11,451 nt of DNA from Octopus sinensis (Eukaryota). The translations under genes and the position numbers were made by a program. The notes below the pieces were generated by a model that was not told where the DNA came from, ran no database searches, and was given only the letters and a program-made list of their open reading frames with translations. The stretch is from NCBI RefSeq assembly GCF_006345805.1, contig NW_021826997.1, forward strand, positions 1 through 11,451. Direction: 5' to 3'. Shown here one piece after another: positions 1 through 11,451 of this stretch; the stretch's first letter is position 1; each line of letters begins with the position of its first letter.

Positions 1-1310
1 CTCCAGAACATAATAGGTGGGGGTCATATGTTTCACAGAAAGGTAAAACCTATAACTTTAAAACGCAGCTAAAACACAAATTAAAATTGTCAGGCATATC
101 TCTGAATATACCAGTGTCATTGGTGAAAGAAACGCAAGAGAAACAATAAAAGACACCGGTAATGACACAGATCAATGCTTCACATTACGAGAATATAGGA
201 GAATAGAGCGCGTGACATAAGAGCATGGCTGAATTCTGTTGCCTGTTTTATTGTCTGTTCTGATCTCAGACCTTCTGTTTTCTTGAAGCTGAGTTAGCTT
301 ATGTAATGATTCATTCATTGCAATCACAGAATCCATTGGCTCTTTTGAAGACGCCAGCCTTCGGACACTATCATTGGTATTTTTTCATGACATCCTCACT
401 CAGTTTGGGAGATCCAATTTTCTTTCTAAAACTTTTCCAACATTGGAAGAAACAAGTTTCAATTTCAAACTAAGGCAATGCAAATCTTATTTCTAACTTC
501 AATGTCTACATTTTCATTGCTTTTATTATTGTTAGGTGTTTGCGATTATTAATTGCGTTTTCGTGATGGATTCTTTTCTTTAAATATTCTTCATTTCTGA
601 TATTTTTCGCTTTCAGAATGTCCCTTATTAAGTTAACAAGACCTTGGTTGTTTTCTCTCCAAATTTTATACTAATATACCGTGTTTTCATATAAAATATA
701 CTTGCAAAATAAAACGAAGTTTCTCTTGTGTTCGTTTTATGTATTTTCTGTTTTATTTGCTTGGACTGAGGAGTTCAATCTGACAATTATATTTCATTTT
801 CATCTTTGGGTAAAGGCATATTAGTTTCTCTTGTTGGTGAGTTTTGTACGCATGATTTCCGTAAATTTATATGAAAAATTCCTCTTGAGCATTCCTCCAG
901 TAAGAAGTAATTTTAGAGAATTGATACATCTTTATTGGGATAATTTGACCTATTTTAAGTTTGGTGACGGGTGACAGTGCGATGCGGTTTTGCTAAAGAC
1001 CGTGACCCGATGTCCATATCTACATGTGATCTGAGAGGTTTGGACACTGTAAGCATTTAAAACATGATTTTTGAATACTAAATAGCAATAAATTTTACGG
1101 AATTTTACTTATGCTGTTAACTTTCAACAATTCGGCAACTCTTTTACGGTTTCATTTATTGCTTTGGGGTATTTTAAAGCAATGATTAAACTTACTTGCA
1201 TGGTAAACATCCCCAGCGGTGTTGTTTCTGTTGTTGTTGCTGTAATTAGCAGTAATCGTACTAATAAATATTGTTGTTGTAGTGTATAATTTTCATATCT
1301 GTTATTACAG

Positions 1311-1494
1311 CCTGTATGCCGATTCGCAATATCAATGAACGGTGCTAAACTGAAGACTGAAAGGTCCTGCAGCACATACAGAAAATGTGTTGAAGCTATG
1401 AGAAACAATACCCTTACATGCAATAAACGGACGAATGGCACGTCTTGTACTGGTTGTTGCGTCGGACACTTATGTAACAAGAATGATTTCATTG
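1311..1494 (+). CDS. Internal coding exon A: C-terminal half of a Ly6/uPAR (LU, three-finger) domain
   Basis: Acceptor tttcatatctgttattacAG (ends 1310), donor GTAAGT (1495-1500); 184 bp, phase 0 to 1. Translation PVCRFAISMNGAKLKTERSCSTYRKCVEAMRNNTLTCNKRTNGTSCTGCCVGHLCNKNDFI(G) has 8 Cys ending in the CxxCCxxxxCN signature of LU domains. Confidence 0.88.
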
Positions 1495-1595
1495 GTAAGT
1501 GGTACTTATTGTCTATATAACACTAACAAGTTTATTACAAATTGATAGTTAATAAGAACATTTTATAGTAATTAATATACGGGAAAATATTTTGA

Positions 1596-1608
1596 TGTGT
1601 GTATACGT

Positions 1609-1648
<40 letters not shown>

Positions 1649-1740
1649 TATATATATGTGTGTATATATATGTTTGCAATGCTCTCTCTCCCTCTCTCCC
1701 TCTCCCCTCTCTCTATCTCTCTAACACACACACACTCACA
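1596..1740. repeat. Compound microsatellite (TA)n-(CT)n-(CA)n
   Basis: Read directly. Confidence 0.95.
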
Positions 1741-2037
1741 GATGGAATCAAACACCACGACATGAAGGAAAAGAGTAAAAGAGAGCACTTTTGGCGAGTG
1801 AGCAAAATATTGATTTGAAAGCTGAATGCCTGGAACATAATTTCGGCGATAAACTCGCACGCAGTCGCAGTAGTTCGGAATGATGCTGGAAAACTGAAGT
1901 GGACAGAGGAGAAGCTAAAGGAGTTGGACAGGAAGTCAAGAAAGGTCCTATCGATGTATGGAACCAATCATCCATGTGCAGGCATTGATAGCCGATACAC
2001 GAAGAGAGCGACAGGAAGAAAGGGAATGATAAGTGTA
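1741..2037 (+). mobile_element. Degenerate non-LTR retrotransposon fragment, R4/Dong-like (region downstream of the RT core)
   Basis: Single frame DGIKHHDMKEKSKREHFWRVSKILI*KLNAWNIISAINSHAVAVVRNDAGKLKWTEEKLKELDRKSRKVLSMYGTNHPCAGIDSRYTKRATGRKGMISV resembles the R4/Dong motif series KLNxxN-AIN-AV-W-ELDRKTRK-HP-DRLY-GGRGL. One in-frame stop at 1816-1818. Confidence 0.85.
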
Positions 2038-2060
2038 TATATATATATATATATATATAT

Positions 2061-2290
2061 AATAATTATTATTTGAGTGAATAAAATCCAAACTTACAAG
2101 GAAAAAATTAAATTTAGAAATACTAAATCAAATTTCACATAATATAAGATATATATAAAAAATTAAAATAAAAAAACCAGCTTTTATCAATTCAAAATGA
2201 ACAACTAAATTACACCATCTAGAAAATTACATATAATAGAAATATAAAAAATAAATAACAATTAAATGTCAATGCTTAAAAAAATTGCAA
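2061..2290. repeat. Possible AT-rich interspersed repeat fragment between microsatellites
   Basis: Non-simple A-rich block (ccaaacttacaaggaaaaaattaaatttagaaatactaaatcaaatttcacata) bounded by (TA)n and (AAT)n; resembles a recurring octopus repeat by recollection only. Confidence 0.3.
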
Positions 2291-2481
2291 ATAATAATAA
2301 TAATAATAAAAACGTATATAATAGGTAGAATAAGAATAATATATATATATATATATATAGTATTTTAAGTGTATATGTGATTATGAATGTATATTTTTAT
2401 CTACGTATGTGGGTTTTCTGTGCATCTATGACGTGTGTCTCATTTATAAACGCAGCGATTATTTTCTATATCAATCCATAG

Positions 2482-2564
2482 GCTGGACCAAATCCCTCGT
2501 ATTTCGTTTGATTTTTAAAAAGTTCAACGAATATAAAATCCCCGCTGAGAACATATCAAGAGCC
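2482..2564 (+). CDS. Internal coding exon B of the same gene (start of SEA-like domain)
   Basis: Acceptor ttttctatatcaatccatAG (ends 2481), donor GTGAGT (2565-2570); 83 bp, phase 1 to 0, matching exon A. Translation (G)WTKSLVFRLIFKKFNEYKIPAENISRA. Confidence 0.8.
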
Positions 2565-2935
2565 GTGAGTAGATATCTGCCCTCTCTCTCTCTTTCTCCG
2601 TACACAGACGCGCGTGCGCGCACACATATGCACTGAACATGCGCACACATGCATACACATACACACTCTCACGCACACATACACACACACACATGCATAT
2701 TTTATAGAAGAAATGTGAAACGTCAAATAAATAGTGAGGTTTCATGAAATTCAGACAATCAACTCCATTTACTGATAGTAAACTATTACATAAAACTTTC
2801 TTTTTTAACTTACTGAATTTTTGCTGGTCAATAAAAAGACTGTTCTATCCACTATTTTGTCTTTATATATTCCGTGATATAACTTCCGATTCTGACAGTA
2901 AATAAAATCCTACTCAAATATTCACTAATCTTGTG

Positions 2936-2938
<3 letters not shown>

Positions 2939-3023
<85 letters not shown>
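2939..3023. repeat. (CA)n microsatellite, about 42 units with one interruption
   Basis: Read directly; source of the poly-HT and poly-CV pseudo-ORFs. Confidence 0.97.
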
Positions 3024-3024
<1 letters not shown>

Positions 3025-3170
3025 GAATATATGTAATCACACACTTTCTTTTGGTAATACTTTTCTTCTCAACATTTTCGTTGTCCTTTCTGACAAAGAG
3101 ATATGCTCGGAACATTAAAAACCCTCTCATTTCCCCCACTTTACCGAGTGTCAAGCTAATATATTTATAT

Positions 3171-3483
3171 ATAATTATATTCTCAAACGCAGGATAATGC
3201 TAATAGTATAGCATGAACAGGATAAACTATTCACCTGTTGCCGAAAACTCTGTCGGCGGCCAGATTACGCGTCTTATAAAGCTAGATGTATATAGCCTAA
3301 ATTTGCAGAAGTATTTGTCGTTCACGCAGTTTAGCTTAATGGTAAAGCAATTAAAGCGTAATCACAGGGGTGTGAGTTGTAGTCACATAGCTGGCCGCCG
3401 ACAGATTTTTCTGCAAATTATGGATATTTCATCCGGTTCACGTTATATCATTAGCATTATCCTGCGTTTCAGAATAAAATTAT
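3171..3483. mobile_element. Foldback / MITE-like element with 93-bp imperfect terminal inverted repeats
   Basis: 3171-3263 aligns without gaps to the reverse complement of 3391-3483 (about 16 mismatches by hand count), with perfect cores AAACGCAGGATAATGCTAAT (3185-3204 / 3450-3469) and TCTGTCGGCGGCCAG (3249-3263 / 3391-3405). No clear target-site duplication. Confidence 0.7.
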
Positions 3484-3580
3484 TTCTTTATTTTTCAATA
3501 CATCTCAACACTTTTAAATCAAACTTAGTTTCTTTCATTTAATGTATATATATATATATATATACATCCGTCTTTTGCAG

Positions 3581-3633
3581 ATGGAGCATGACCTTTCAAC
3601 CGTGACGGGAACATTTAGAGTTGAAGGCTGTGG
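3581..3633 (+). CDS. Internal coding exon C of the same gene
   Basis: Acceptor catccgtcttttgcAG (ends 3580), donor GTAAAC (3634-3639); 53 bp, phase 0 to 2, bridging exons B and D. Translation MEHDLSTVTGTFRVEGC(G). Too short to appear in the ORF track. Confidence 0.75.
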
Positions 3634-3849
3634 GTAAACAATGCTTCTAACACATTTATTCAAATTTATTTGGTTTTGTTCCAAACATTCAATTTTATCG
3701 CATGTATTATAAGCCACAATATTCAACAATGTTGTACTTGTGACTCATAATATACTAATTCATACATTCAATGAAATGTTTAAGTGTTTTATCCATGTTT
3801 TATTATACAAAGGACACACAAACCCATATAAAGATACACAGAGAAACTG

Positions 3850-3883
3850 TATATATACTTGTATATATGTACACATATATATG

Positions 3884-3915
<32 letters not shown>

Positions 3916-3916
3916 C
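3850..3916. repeat. Imperfect (TA)n tract, left flank of the inverted-repeat element
   Basis: Read directly. Confidence 0.9.
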
Positions 3917-4193
3917 ATTTCAACAATTGAGGGTAAAATTAATTAATTATTAATCAATTTCACCAAGTATTCAGTATGTAAAGGGACCATTTTAGGCGAA
4001 TTCAAAATATTACATTATATATAAGGGCTTAGTAAAATAAATTACTTTGCCACATACTGAACTCATTAGAAATAGCAGCTAAAGAAATTTCTTCAGCTAT
4101 TTCTAATACTTAAAGAAGATCTCTCTCAGATAGTGTTTGCCTAAGCCAACTCACAAAGGTATGGGGGAAAAAAACATTAAAAAATCAAGTGCA

Positions 4194-4263
4194 AAGGTTA
4201 TTTGAGAACGTACGTTTCTAGATTAGTCAATTCGACATTTCTTTCGTCAGCTCAGAATTCCTT
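4194..4263 (-). ncRNA. Minimal type I hammerhead ribozyme motif (inverted copy)
   Basis: Exact reverse complement of 4685-4754 inside the inverted arm. Confidence 0.7.
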
Positions 4264-4684
4264 GAATCGGATTTGGGAACACTGAAAGTTAGGAGCATAC
4301 CCTTTCGGCTTCTTATCACTTCCAGAATTCTGCTCGAACTAAAAGTAATTTATTTTACTAAGCCCTTATATATAATGTAATATTTTGAATTCGCCTAAAA
4401 TGGTCCCTTTACATACTGAATACTTGGTGAAATTGATTAATAATTAATTAATTTTACCCTCAATTGTTGAAATTATAATTCATCTCGCTCTGTTAAATGC
4501 TGCGGTTTTCACCGTTAATACATGGTGTTTGTCAATTTTAACCCACGCTGGTGGAAGGGGGAGAGCAGAAATTCTTCGCTTGCATATTCGAATTTGGTAG
4601 CACTTTTAGTTCGAGCAGAATTCTGGAAGTGATAAGAAGCCGAAAGGGTATGCTCCCAACTTTCAGTGTTCCCAAATCCGATTC

Positions 4685-4754
4685 AAGGAATTCTGAGCTG
4701 ACGAAAGAAATGTCGAATTGACTAATCTAGAAACGTACGTTCTCAAATAACCTT
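4685..4754 (+). ncRNA. Minimal type I hammerhead ribozyme motif
   Basis: Stem I TGAG (4694-4697) / CTCA (4742-4745), extendable through ATT/AAT and AAGG/CCTT; core CTGACGA (4698-4704); stem II AGA..GTC-gaatt-GAC..TCT; GAAA (4730-4733); minimal palindromic stem III ACGTACGT; GUU triplet with predicted cleavage after 4741. The first stem II pair is a non-canonical A-A. Confidence 0.7.
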
Positions 4755-4931
4755 TGCACTTGATTTTTTAATGTTTTTCCCCCATACCTTTGTGAGTTGG
4801 CTTAGGCAAACACTATCTGAGAGGATCTTCTTTAAGTATTAGAAATAGCTGAAGAAATTTCTTTAGCTGCTATTTCTAATGAGTTCAGTATGTGGCAAAG
4901 TAATTTATTTTACTAAGCCCTTATATATAAT

Positions 4932-4965
4932 ATATATATATACATATATATATATTTAAATATAC

Positions 4966-5015
<50 letters not shown>

Positions 5016-5060
5016 ATAATATATATAATATATATATATATATAATATATATTATATATA
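4932..5060. repeat. Imperfect (TA)n tract between the inverted-repeat element and the RTE fragment
   Basis: Read directly. Confidence 0.95.
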
Positions 5061-5583
5061 CTGTATGATGCATGTGTTACGAAAGCTATGCTACATGGCA
5101 GTGGAACATGGGTCGTGACTGCTGAGGACATGCGTAAGCTCGTGAGGAACGAAGCCAGTATGCTCCGATGGATGTGTAATGTCAGCCTACCTACTCGACA
5201 GAGCGTTAGTACCTGAGAGAAATGTTGTACCTCAGAAGCATCAGTTGTGTGTGTGCAAGAGAGACGATTGCGCTGGTATGGTCATGTGGCGAGAATGGAT
5301 GAAGATAGGTGTGTGAGAAAGTGCCAATCCCTAGCAGTTGAGGGAACCCGTGGAAGAGGTAGACCCAGGAAAACTTGGGACGAGGTGGTGAAGCACGACT
5401 TCGAACGTTAGGTCTCACCATGGAAATGACTAGAGACCGAGACCTATGGAAGTATGCTGTGCGTTGAGAAGACCGGCAAGACTAGTGAAGCAATACTCCG
5501 TGGCCCCTACCTGGGACGTAGTCAGTCCACCTGTGCATACCTTCCTTCTTGTGACACTTGTGAAGACCTGTTGAGGCAAGTGA

Positions 5584-5632
5584 GAATCGAATCGAATCGA
5601 ATCAAATCAAATCAAATCGAAACAAATCAAAA
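5584..5632 (+). repeat. (AATCG)n/(AATCA)n pentanucleotide microsatellite in the RTE 3' UTR
   Basis: aatcgaatcgaatcgaatcaaatcaaatcaaatcg read directly. Confidence 0.9.
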
Positions 5633-5675
5633 TAGATGAAAATCAATGGAATTTGTATCCTTGTGGACCAGTGCC

Positions 5676-6133
5676 GGTGGCACATAAGAAAAACCATCCG
5701 AACGTGACCGTAGCCAGTACCGCAACGACGGCCTCCGTGCTGAGGGCACGTAACAAACACCATCCGAGCGTGGCCGTCCGCCAGCCTCGTCTGGCACCTG
5801 TGTCGGTGACACATAAGAAAACACCATCCGAGCGTGGCCGTCAGCCAGCCTCGTCTGGCACCTGTGTCGGTGGCACATAAAAAACACCATCCGAGTGTGG
5901 CCGTCTGCCAGCCTCGTCTGGCACCTGTGTCGGTGGCACATAAAAACCACCATCCGAGCGTGGCCGTCAGCCAGCCTCGTCTGGCACCTGTGTCGGTGGC
6001 ACATAAAAAACACCATCCGAGCGTGGCCGTCAGCCAGCTCGTCTGGCACCTGTGTCGGTGGCACATAAAAAACACCATCCGAGCGTGGCCGTTCGCCAGC
6101 CTCGTCTGGCCCCTGTGTCGGTGGCACATAAAA
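5676..6133 (+). repeat. 63-bp GC-rich tandem minisatellite within the RTE 3' UTR
   Basis: catccga anchors at 5695 (degenerate unit), 5761, 5825, 5888, 5951, 6014 and 6076; spacing 62-66 bp; six near-identical units. Confidence 0.95.
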
Positions 6134-6462
6134 TCACCCACTACACTCTCGGAGTGGTTGGCGTTAGGAAGGGCATCCAGCTGTAGAAACACTGCCAGAT
6201 CTGACTGGCCTGGTGCAGCCTTCGGGCTTGCCAGACCCCAGTTGAACCGTCCAACCCATGCTAGCATGGAAAACGGACGCTAAACGATGATGATGATGAT
6301 GATGATACATACGCATTGAGTCGAAACAGAGGCAGCTGAAGAAGGGAATTTTCCTTGTATTGTTTGTCCTGTTTTTCGTTGTTGAAAAAAGTCTGTTTCC
6401 TTTTTGATTTTATGTTTTCGCTTCTCGTTGTGTTCTACGCTTTTTTGTGGTGTCCTGTACTC

Positions 6463-6640
6463 ATATATATATGTATATATACATATAGATGTAGGTATGT
6501 ACATATATGTATGTATGTATGCATATGTTTTATTTATTAAATTGCTGTATATATATGTATATATATATACATACATATACATCACACATATATATACACA
6601 CATATATATACACACATATATATGGGTGTGTATATATATA
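6463..6640. repeat. Degenerate (TA)/(TATG)/(CA) microsatellite
   Basis: Read directly. Confidence 0.9.
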
Positions 6641-6823
6641 AATTGAGTTGGGTATCGGCAATTTGAAACCAACAAGGAAATAATTCACAGTCACTAAGTG
6701 TGAAAAGAGTGCAGTGAGCACCAGTATTATTAGAAATATTAGTCATAGACTCCTTAGCCACAAAAAGACATATGGTCTGTTTGCATTGACAGTGGGGAGA
6801 ACATTCCCCACGGTAAGCCAGAT

Positions 6824-6877
6824 GGATTAGATTAGCATGGTAATTTCTAATAGGAAGTTAATACTCATCAGCAATGC
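6824..6877 (-). ncRNA. Degenerate hammerhead ribozyme-like motif
   Basis: Minus strand: GCATTG-CTGATGA-gtattaacttcctatta-GAAA-TTAccatgcTAA-TC-TAATCC. Intact core boxes, stem III AUUA/UAAU, AUC triplet, stem I AUUG/UAAU; stem II pairs poorly. Confidence 0.4.
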
Positions 6878-7031
6878 TCACTCCATTACGGCTGGTGGAG
6901 GCTAACTCCCGCCTGTCAATATCATTGAGAATGACATAAAAATGAGTGATTGATTTCACAAAATGGCAATGTGAAGATTATAAAATATTGAAGGTAGCTA
7001 ACACACATTTTAAAACCAACCAGGTAATTAT

Positions 7032-7064
<33 letters not shown>

Positions 7065-7073
7065 GTATGTATC

Positions 7074-7475
7074 TCTCTCACTTTTTTCTCTCTTTTACTT
7101 GTTTCAGTCATTTGACTGCGGCCATGCTGGAGCACCACCTTTAATCGAGCAAATCGACTCCGGGACTTATTCTTTGTAAGCCCAGTACTTATTCTATCGG
7201 TCTCTTTTGCCGAACCGCTAAGTGACGGGGAGTAAACACACCAGCAATGCTTGGGAGACAAACACAGACACACAAACACACACACATACACACACACACA
7301 TATATATACATATATACGACAGGCTTCTTTCAGTTTCCGTCTACCAAATCCACTCACAAGGCATTGGTCGGCCCGGAGCTATAGCAGAAGACACTAGCCC
7401 AAGATGCCACGCAGTGGGACTGAACCCGGAACCATGTGGTTGGTTAGCAAGCTACTTACCACACAGCCACTCCTG
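7074..7475 (-). mobile_element. tRNA-derived SINE (octopus-type), near full length
   Basis: Minus strand begins caggagTGGCTGTGTGGtaag (A-box-like) ... GGTTCAGTCCC (B-box-like), has an internal (TA)/(TG) tract and a purine-rich tail; homologous to 10094-10379 and 10836-11260. Confidence 0.9.
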
Positions 7476-7993
7476 TATATGTATAAATACATATATAAAG
7501 TGTATTCAAAGATTTATGCAGGGAGCGAAGACCTTCATGTGCATTTCTTAGTGGACGAATATATTCGTAAGACCAACTTTTAGTCACCCGCTTGTAGTTC
7601 GAGCCTCCTTCACTAATTCTGTTCTCAACCATACTGAATGCGGTTATTTTAGCTATGATGATCCAATCCTGAGCTATATTTGAATATACTGATAGAAAGC
7701 GATGTGAAAGACAGTGGTGATGGTGGTGGAGCGGAAAGTGATGAAAAGTATTGATGGTGATGGCGTCAGAAGTCTGGATGGCGTGTGTATGGCAGATATG
7801 GTGGCGATGGTGGTGGTACTGTTGTTTATCATGAAGCTTTGCAATAAGTTCCGAGTCGACAAATTATATCATTGCTTTGATGAAAATTGTTCATTGCTTG
7901 AGAAATATTCATGTTTCATGAAATTTAATATGTACTCAATGCATGGTGTCATTGTTGGGCCCAAGGATTAACAGGGGAGCTTTTAAACGAATG

Positions 7994-8037
<44 letters not shown>

Positions 8038-8106
8038 TATATATATAATATATATATATCAATGTATATTTCTAGCTAGCTAGCTAGCTACATACATACA
8101 TACATA
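7994..8106. repeat. Compound microsatellite (TA)n-(TAGC)n-(TACA)n just upstream of exon D
   Basis: Read directly. Confidence 0.93.
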
Positions 8107-8141
8107 CCGACATACATGTATGTATTTATTTTTTATTTCAG

Positions 8142-8296
8142 CTCAAACAGAAATAAAATATTTGCTATTTACTGTACAGTATTTAGCGAAATGACTGAAA
8201 GTCAACTGCGGCGCAATATCTCCCAAGTTTTGAACAAATCCCAGGAATTGCTTAACTTAGGAGTTAAGAAAAGCCACATTAAATTCATTGATGAAA
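8142..8296 (+). CDS. Internal coding exon D of the same gene (C-terminal part of SEA-like domain)
   Basis: Acceptor tttattttttatttcAG (ends 8141), donor GTAAGT (8297-8302); 155 bp, phase 2 to 1. Translation (G)SNRNKIFAIYCTVFSEMTESQLRRNISQVLNKSQELLNLGVKKSHIKFIDE. Confidence 0.82.
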
Positions 8297-9351
8297 GTAA
8301 GTATCGTGTTCTCTATTAATTTAATCATCATTACCGTCATAATTAGCTTCATCAATCACCAACCTCTTAGTCGTTGTCGTCATCATCAACCACAGTAGAT
8401 GACACCAAGCACACAGACTCTCTCCCTCTCTCTCTCTCTCTCTCTCACAACAACTATTTATTTACATTTTCTCACAACGCTTGGATAATTTTAAAAAAAA
8501 GCATTTTATTTTGCGCTTTTCGGTTCTTGTCCCTACGGAACTGTTTGTCTTTGCTCAGTTTCTTTTTAATTATACCAATTAACCGAGGGCAAAAATGTCT
8601 TCTTCTAATTTTGTATAGAAGTAGAAGATGCAGACTCTAATGGGCAGAAAAATTCAAACAATTCCAGTACTTGCTTTAATTCAAACAGGAAAACTATTTA
8701 GTGCTGCAAATAATTTTCCTCAGCGAAAATTCATTTCGTACGAAGTGATCAAGTTAATTTTTACATTAGGATCGATAGATACACACACACAGCTCATACG
8801 ATTTAAACAGTGTCTAAGGGATATAAGAGAGGAACAAATCATATCCCATTGCCGAAAAATGATATATTTTCTCTTCGTTTCCATTCATTTCATTTTACCA
8901 TCGCCAAATCAATATAACATCTACCTATTTCTAGCATACATTAGGTTTTGCGCTTCCGGTCAGTATGTCTAAAGAGTGATCAATATATTGACGAAATTCA
9001 ACGCTAGAGGCCGCGAAACAGACAAGCATTCTGAGTAGTCATATCCCGTAACCAGTTATATATTGCTCGAGAAAATATAAAATATATATATACATATGCA
9101 CACATCTCTATTTCTATTTTGTTTATTGTTTTTTAAGAATATATAAGAAAATATATATATAAGAATATATATATATATATATAATCTACAGGATCTCAAG
9201 TAGTTATGCAGTTTCAATCGGCTAAATTTAATTGAACAATACAAAAATTACATCAATTTAAATGCAATGCCATCTTCAGCTGCATAAATAATGAATTAGA
9301 ATTTTAATAAGTAGGACACTTTAATGTAATTTTTCTCAAATATTTGAACAG

Positions 9352-9446
9352 AGCAAGAATATGGAGAAAATCATATTGTCGCCATTTTAGTTAAGAATAG
9401 ACTACACTTCCAAGAATTGCATGGAGCCTGGTTGGGTCCTTGTCTT
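9352..9446 (+). CDS. Possible further exon (weak candidate)
   Basis: tttttctcaaatatttgaacAG acceptor and GTAAGG donor (9447-9452); phase 1 to 0 is compatible with exon D and open: (K)QEYGENHIVAILVKNRLHFQELHGAWLGPCL. The acceptor is weak and there is no recognisable motif. Confidence 0.2.
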
Positions 9447-9780
9447 GTAAGGGATTGTAATTCATTTCTAAATCATTTATCTCTTTACAAACTACTAAAT
9501 GAAAAACTAGAAATCTGTCTATTTTGAATAAATATATATGCTCTCCGTATATGTTTGCAACACTTCGTGTATCATTGTCCTCAAATCAGCCAGCACGTGG
9601 TCCAAACAATTTATTTCCAACATTAACCGAGAACACTATATTGGCAGCGCAAGAGTAAGCTTTGGCCACAAACTGGAGGGTCGACATTAGAATGAGCAAG
9701 TGTCCAGGAACTCCCACAATGCAAGCCTCAAGGAACTCCTACAAAACCTCTGATAAAGAGAAATAATAATCAAAATAAAT

Positions 9781-9976
9781 AAATTTGACAAAAACTAATA
9801 AGTTGCTGAAAATATGTGGAGCTCAACATCCGAAAGCAGATATCAACCGACTGTAATTAAGGAAAGACCAGACTGGGAGATGCTTAATAGCAGTAGAAGA
9901 ATGTATAGAGATGGAAAAAAAAAGCTTAGCCGAGTATTTACAATGTGGCACAGAAAAACTACTAAAGACTGAATAA
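9781..9976 (+). mobile_element. Second degenerate R4/Dong-like LINE fragment
   Basis: From 9791: KTNKLLKICGAQHPKADINRL*LRKDQTGRCLIAVEECIEMEKKSLAEYLQCGTEKLLKTE*, matching HPKADxDRLY-R--GGRGLI-VE-C; overlaps the protein region encoded at the end of 1741-2037. Confidence 0.8.
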
Positions 9977-10093
9977 AAAGGCAGGTAAAAGCAGACTTCT
10001 CTTGCTATAATTCTAATGAAAAGGCCTGAAAATGTGAAAAGTGCAGAAACTGTGTCCAAAAAGCCTAAATTAAGCGACGCGAGAGAGAAAAGC

Positions 10094-10379
10094 CCCCAGT
10101 ACTTATTCTTTGTAAGCCTAGTATTTATTCTATCGGTCTCTTTTGCCGAACCGCTAAGTTACAGGGTCGTAAACACACAAGCATCGGTTGTCAAGTGATG
10201 TTGGACGGGGGGGGGGGCAAAAACACACACAAACATATACACACATACACACACATAGATATATATACATATACATATATACGACAGGCTTCTTTCAGTC
10301 TCCGTCTACCAAATCCACTCACAAGGTTTTGGTCGGTCCGAGGCTATAGTAGAAGACACTTTCCCAAGGTACCACGCAG
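10094..10379 (-). mobile_element. Internal fragment of the same SINE family (lacks head and tail)
   Basis: Reverse complement aligns to about 10900-11178 of the downstream copy. Confidence 0.9.
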
Positions 10380-10664
10380 GTTCTTCCTGAAATTTCAATT
10401 GAAAGCGATTCTCCTTCCAAACGCTAATATCCCTCTTCCTTGCACACATTGTATCCCTCGTACACGGGGTAATCAAATTAATAAAAACCGCTTTAGATAT
10501 TTCTTTTGCGTTCTATTTTACTGTGCTTTTATTATTGTCATTTTCCTTGTAACTGTAGGCTTTCTGTTTCGAAACCCATAAAATTGGCCATTGGATGGTT
10601 TTGTGTTGCTGGAAAGGAACAATCATATTCTAATACATATGTCTGCATGTGTGGGCATGGTTGC

Positions 10665-10835
<171 letters not shown>

Positions 10836-11260
10836 GCGTAGTAGTGGGTGTGTGGTAAGTAGATTGCTTACGAACCATATGGTCCCGGTTTCAGTCCCAC
10901 TGCGTGGTACCTTGGGCAAGTGTCTTCTGCTATAACCTCAGGCCGACAAAGCCTTGTGAATGGATTTGGTAGACGGAAACGGAAAGAAGCCTGTCGTATA
11001 TATGATATGTATATATACTATGTGTGTGTATGTGCGTATATGTTTGTGTCTGTTTTTATCCCCCCCTCCAACATCGCTTGACAACCGATGCTGGTGTGTT
11101 TACGACCCTGTAACTTATCAGTTCGGCAAAAGAGACCGATAGAATAAATACTAGGCTTACAAAGAATAAGTACTGGGGTCGATTTGCTCGACTAAACGCG
11201 GTGCTCCAGCATGGCCACAGTCAAAGACTGAAACAAATAAAAGAGTAAAAAGTAAAGAGT
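10836..11260 (+). mobile_element. tRNA-derived SINE (octopus-type), near full length
   Basis: gcgtagtagTGGGTGTGTGGtaag ... GTTTCAGTCCC head, shared body (gatttggtagacggaaac, ttcggcaaaagagaccgatagaataa, gctccagcatggcc) and taaaagagtaaaaagtaaagag tail. Confidence 0.9.
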
Positions 11261-11451
11261 ATATATGAATCTTTAGTCAAATATATTCAATGAGAATATT
11301 ATATACTGAATATATATTGAGTGCTCTATTGTATCAAAGTGTTAATATTATTAAGGTATTTATATATTAATGCGAGCGATTATATATATTTTTATATAAT
11401 ATATTATTATTAATATTAAGAATTCAATATCAGAAAACTTCACAGAAAGAT

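Follow-up and report, generated by a model that had tools for sequence, protein, structure and literature searches.

What protein is encoded by four exons at 1311-8296 of an AT-rich, repeat-filled stretch of animal DNA, and does that protein remain attached to a membrane? The stretch, here called the window, comprises 11,451 nt of Octopus sinensis contig NW_021826997.1 (positions 1 to 11,451, forward strand), and a preliminary description of its letters had read the exons as an LU (three-finger) domain joined to a SEA-like domain. The exons are almost certainly part of a copy of the group 3 adhesion G-protein-coupled receptor (GPCR) family of Ritschard et al. 2019 (PMC6408891), whose full members have the order signal peptide, leucine-rich repeats (LRRs), LU, SEA, HormR, GAIN/GPS and a seven-transmembrane (7TM) region. 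In addition, we consider it probable (roughly 0.6) that the window copy belongs to a young subgroup encoding a secreted ectodomain without the membrane part.

Four exons of one gene copy

The four exons are each bounded by an AG acceptor and a GT donor, are chained in phases 0-1, 1-0, 0-2 and 2-1, and contain no stop codon when each is read in its own phase; the joined length is 475 nt, or 158 codons. These values, the intron lengths and the five sequons of the spliced peptide (NNT, NGT, NIS, NIS and NKS) are as previously described. The features are as follows.

1311-1494 (+), coding exon 1, phase 0-1: C-terminal two thirds of a 12-Cys LU domain of LYPD1/LYPD6 type, with 8 Cys and 2 sequons
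1495-2481 (+), intron 1, 987 bp, phase 1, GT-AG: spliced joint in runs X10 and X8
2482-2564 (+), coding exon 2, phase 1-0: SEA-like strand 1 and start of helix 1
2565-3580 (+), intron 2, 1016 bp, phase 0, GT-AG: 9-letter loose end in run X4
3581-3633 (+), coding exon 3, phase 0-2: end of SEA-like helix 1, with strand 2; Gly at a position that is Asp in the closest paralog models
3634-8141 (+), intron 3, 4508 bp, phase 2, GT-AG, repeat-filled: loose ends equal to 8142-8171 in X10 and X8
8142-8296 (+), coding exon 4, phase 2-1: SEA-like strand 3, helix 2 and strand 4, with 2 sequons; nearest to 7TM-less paralog models that bear a second SEA domain (SEA2)

An O. sinensis protein model, P0008 (XP_036369240.1), is identical at 153 of the 156 whole codons and has exact junction spacing (1, 0 and 1 residues), and the same chain occurs in register, with equally exact spacing, in 18 of the 93 stored proteins. 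The chain is therefore not due to chance, and the four exons are confirmed as real exons of one adhesion-receptor gene copy.

The LU and predicted SEA-type domains

With high confidence, the exons encode most of an LU domain and a predicted SEA-type fold. The LU domain has 12 Cys, all 12 of which align to those of LYPD1, and a skeleton ending in CCxxxxCN; its fold is that of a three-finger domain, with the LYPD1 (Lynx2)/LYPD6/LYPD6B group as best structural match. The preliminary description was right as to the LU call and its closing motif, but exon 1 is not the whole domain, since it carries only 8 of the 12 Cys; the window begins downstream of the exon that holds the first four. The Pfam gathering score for LU is reached neither by exon 1 (E 0.26 against UPAR_LY6_2) nor by the best relative (E 1.3e-4; 22.6 bits, below 31.5).

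The predicted model of residues 92-185 is a ferredoxin-like beta-alpha-beta-beta-alpha-beta sandwich of about 100 aa, with blocks of 71-89 in predicted local distance difference test (pLDDT) score. Its strands and helices lie where they had been placed from the letters, and the SEA/ferredoxin-like call, which had been staked on such a model, stands. The structure matches are ferredoxin folds, among which solved SEA domains do not rank above the others. The SEA assignment comes from relatives: Pfam SEA is matched sub-threshold in 3 of 13, gastropod relatives bridge to the octopus domain, and the domain precedes HormR-GAIN, which is the ADGRG6 arrangement (PMC6954182). We thus describe the second domain as a predicted ferredoxin fold, of SEA type via the gastropod relatives; the module is flanked by phase-1 introns, as had been claimed. 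Neither a GSVVV/GSIVA cleavage motif nor a furin site is found between strands 2 and 3 in any exon. Cleavage motifs are described for the SEA domains of MUC1, GPR110/116 and human GPR126 (PMC6954182), and the zebrafish Gpr126 SEA is likewise uncleaved.

The receptor family

A search with exon 1 gave 32 candidates, all of which match and form one family; 31 are named as O. sinensis, O. vulgaris or O. bimaculoides. The LU+SEA profile found 45 proteins at E<=0.001, and the ten that were looked up include Argonauta, Nucella, Haliotis, Mizuhopecten, Dreissena, Bulinus and Physella, together with one Holothuria protein that matches in LU only. Pecten and Ylistrum were added by a separate search. Three proteins of the published group 3 (A0A0L8HDZ7, A0A0L8FLR8 and A0A0L8GYR2) fall in clusters found by this profile. 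Pfam GPS and 7tm_2 are above cut-off in P0015, P0030, P0034, P0037 and others, the HormR and GAIN matches of the relatives are sub-threshold, and the relatives are named "adhesion G-protein coupled receptor G6-like" at NCBI. Full family members share the SEA-HormR-GAIN core of ADGRG6/GPR126 and are adhesion GPCRs, which bears out the earlier guess of an adhesion-GPCR-like protein.

The LRR-LU-SEA layout is common to three mollusc classes and was multiplied in Octopus; because it occurs in gastropods and bivalves, it is older than the octopus expansion. The tree has an Octopus clade of 33 rows (support 98/91), within which the window copy falls, by way of P0008, in a younger O. vulgaris/O. sinensis clade. 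P0008 stands in for the window sequence, which was no row; the tree is midpoint-rooted, has long non-cephalopod branches and leaves out five rows without a full LU+SEA unit. Its 13-row young clade has branch lengths <0.1.

The modules vary in number. LRR motifs range from 2 to 11 in the 14 models counted, two or three LUs are present in 4 of 100 models (in two of these the first copy is partial), two SEAs in 14 of 100, and some models are without SEA or without LU, although part of this variation may be annotation noise. As tandem LU copies exist, we infer that the LU module is also flanked by phase-1 introns.

The GPS motif reads HLT in 36 of 40 cases. In P0014, P0015 and P0026 (O. vulgaris), which are the closest GPS-bearing models and the GAIN-bearing models nearest the window, it reads RLK in place of HLT and HormR is missing, so that these three are predicted to be non-cleaving receptors.

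Two further members may be mentioned here. P0048 (O. bimaculoides) has a C-terminal Death domain and is the Death-domain member noted by Ritschard et al. (PMC6408891), whose table gives it expression shares of 0.71 in skin and 0.17 in sucker. The sole squid member of group 3 in the supplement of that paper, E. scolopes cluster_8002, has an unannotated gap at ~281-562 between LRR and GAIN; going by the supplement's annotation, not by sequence, this gap would fit LU-SEA-HormR.

Transcripts

Transcript contigs from 4 of 14 public runs presumed to be RNA were aligned to 1250-3700 of the window. They stem from near-identical paralogs and cannot be assigned to one copy, so that the junction evidence applies at the family level. 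Junction 1494/2482 is seen as a 987-base GT..AG joint in two of the four runs (X10 and X8), and the same two runs have loose ends at junction 3633/8142 whose 30 displayed letters equal 8142-8171; a third run has a 9-letter loose end there with a paralog variant. For junction 2564/3581 the check proposed in the preliminary description gave only a 9-letter loose end with a paralog variant in one run (X4). In two of the four runs, loose ends preceding exon 1 carry the sequence of the upstream LU exon, which is joined in phase 0. In X4, X8 and X10, though not in X1, exon bins have far greater depth than most bins of the introns. The transcripts show that the family is spliced in the four-exon manner; expression of the window copy itself is not thereby shown.

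Is the membrane part lost?

The six closest models, as well as isoform X1 of the closest locus, are without GPS and 7TM, and a GPS is likewise missing from all 14 two-SEA models. One shared C-terminal tail ends 12 of the 100 models and recurs in models of two species. In 8 of 23 tested 7TM-bearing proteins, all eight from Octopus, the best match of this tail is the exact C-terminus; the tail is that of the receptor, and the models therefore splice SEA2 to the receptor's last exon. Of 51 residues in exon 4, 48-51 agree with SEA2-type models and 43-44 with GAIN-type models, and the HormR-to-SEA2 junction is present in run X10. On balance, we lean toward a 7TM-less product of the window copy.

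Four points weigh against a secreted product. The 7TM-less models, which derive from near-identical arrays, do not count as independent; GAIN follows in four close models (with three stored GPS motifs, all the non-canonical RLK); the window ends before the downstream exons that would decide; and no SEA2-to-tail reads were seen in the transcript runs.

The window copy might instead encode a full-length signalling adhesion GPCR (LRR, LU, SEA, HormR, optionally SEA2, GAIN and 7TM), in which case the 7TM-less models would be minor isoforms, or artefacts of annotating an array that is hard to assemble. P0015, identical at 144 of 156 residues, does have GAIN, GPS and 7TM; GAIN-bearing models nest in the same young clade, and the older Octopus, Argonauta, gastropod and bivalve members have GPS, most with a full 7TM. 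We nevertheless regard this explanation as doubtful, given the closer agreement of exon 4 with SEA2-type models, the occurrence of the tail in two species, and the RLK of the close GAIN-type models.

It is improbable that the window is a recent segmental duplicate, silent or truncated, with the transcripts derived from sister copies. The short branches of the young clade, intronic sequence common to several copies and the unassignable contigs would suit such a duplicate, as would the Gly variant of exon 3, which occurs in none of the stored proteins; however, no exon is interrupted by a stop, the splice sites are canonical, and one X10 contig equals exon 1 without any difference. A novel free-standing LU+SEA protein, either mucin-like or GPI-anchored and unrelated to GPCRs, has nothing in its favour beyond the isolation of the window and is very unlikely, being largely refuted by relatives that place the unit after LRRs and before HormR/GAIN/7TM or SEA2; the mucin-like alternative raised earlier also fails in that the close models examined have no Ser/Thr-rich mucin stretch.

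The secreted ectodomain remains our preferred explanation. By analogy with ADGRG6/GPR126, the LRR+LU head would have as its ligand a protein carried by a neighbouring cell or located in the matrix, the uncleaved SEA-HormR stalk would space and couple the head, and in full members GAIN self-cleavage at HL|T would supply the tethered agonist for the 7TM. The transcript of the subclade would run from LU-SEA, with or without HormR, through a duplicated SEA directly to the receptor's last exon. Its product might bind those ligands and yet not signal, serving as a decoy for, or a modulator of, full-length paralogs, which is the step of which we are least sure. A broader scheme can be offered tentatively: an ancient molluscan LRR-LU-SEA receptor may have given rise in octopus to a young, still-duplicating array of secreted ectodomains without GAIN/7TM, combinatorial in LRR number and phase-1 LU/SEA/HormR modules, and working alongside the signalling paralogs in arms, skin or gills as a diversified system of recognition or decoys. 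Should the 7TM-less forms prove real, 7TM-based surveys would overlook secreted modulators that the expansion has yielded.

Repeats and other elements

A degenerate frame at 1762-2025 in intron 1 has no relevant Pfam match; from its look we take it to be a relic of a long interspersed element (LINE) reverse transcriptase. In the O. sinensis model P0067 this frame forms the start (94% over 88 aa) and is followed by a SEA2-type exon; such a layout suggests that the SEA exon block was duplicated together with the intron upstream of it, giving rise to SEA2.

Intron 2 contains an older element at 3171-3483, with 93-nt inverted arms that are 83% complementary. Intron 3 contains an element resembling a miniature inverted-repeat transposable element at 3917-4473, with perfect 132-nt terminal inverted repeats, and an adjoining inverted partial copy of it at 4602-4934; the two are 98-99% complementary and therefore very recent. 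Broken frames at 5046-5411, with AT-hook as the only Pfam match, resemble a LINE reverse transcriptase near its C-terminus, and a GC-rich tandem repeat of 63 bp occupies 5745-6133 (6.2 copies, 94% matches). One dispersed repeat has three copies (~7108-7495, 10083-10379 and 10819-11225; 83-89% alike, both orientations) and is probably an octopus short interspersed element, with no match in Rfam.

Comparison with known systems

LYPD1 (Lynx2), LYPD6 and LYPD6B share the 12-Cys set of the octopus LU domain, all in register, but they are single GPI-anchored domains, whereas the octopus LU is an internal module and ~19% identical. LYPD-type proteins have roles at nicotinic receptors and LRP6; nothing ties the octopus LU to such binding. 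The entry SSF57302, which figures below, we take to be that of snake-toxin-like proteins.

The octopus-specific adhesion-GPCR expansion in PMC6408891 is described there with GPS, 7TM, LRR, one Death domain and signs of positive selection; the expression given is in the axial nerve cord, skin and suckers of O. bimaculoides or the gills of C. minor. Group 3 agrees with the present family in LRR, GPS, 7TM and the Death-domain member, besides the three listed proteins. Its main text names only GPS, 7TM, LRR and Death; the table has one SSF57302 match over the LU domain, unmentioned in the text, and no SEA entry was found in it. The set was built on the 7TM Pfam signature, and 7TM-less paralogs therefore fall outside it.

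LU-bearing GPCRs are also known elsewhere. Paramonov et al. 2026 (PMC13719153) report them in molluscs, arthropods and echinoderms, with a Fig. 2 legend that lists LRR, GPS and 7TM, not SEA; their mollusc example may be the octopus-expanded family. In starfish, the adhesion GPCRs LyAr2 and LyAp2 carry LU domains like those of LYPD1/6 (PMC9410279, PMC11595613), and they are likened to the octopus family by their published description, not by sequence. As described in these sources, the starfish, mollusc and arthropod receptors likewise have one LYPD1/LYPD6-type LU in the N-terminal part; two papers on LU-bearing GPCRs name no SEA domain. The window copy is a further copy of a published family, and the novelty first attached to an LU+SEA architecture was overrated, given the octopus expansion, these receptors and the SEA-HormR-GAIN of ADGRG6 (PMC6954182); a match to a characterised family, foreseen as removing that novelty, applies in part. 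In print our searches did not find the SEA assignment, the pan-molluscan domain order or the 7TM-less subgroup. The present assignment fills the unannotated middle (LU and SEA between LRR and HormR) of receptors in one octopus-specific GPCR expansion.

The ectodomain of ADGRG6/GPR126, and also of ADGRG4, is among the closest known systems (PMC6954182; PMC13197933), and the tie between the octopus expansion and the GPR126 mechanism yields testable predictions. The head of ADGRG6/GPR126 is CUB-PTX, whereas that of the octopus family is LRR+LU; Pfam scans of full-length relatives gave no CUB or pentraxin, and LRRs instead. The strand 2-3 loop of the octopus copy also differs in having no furin site or GSVVV-type motif, and the likeness is one of domain layout.
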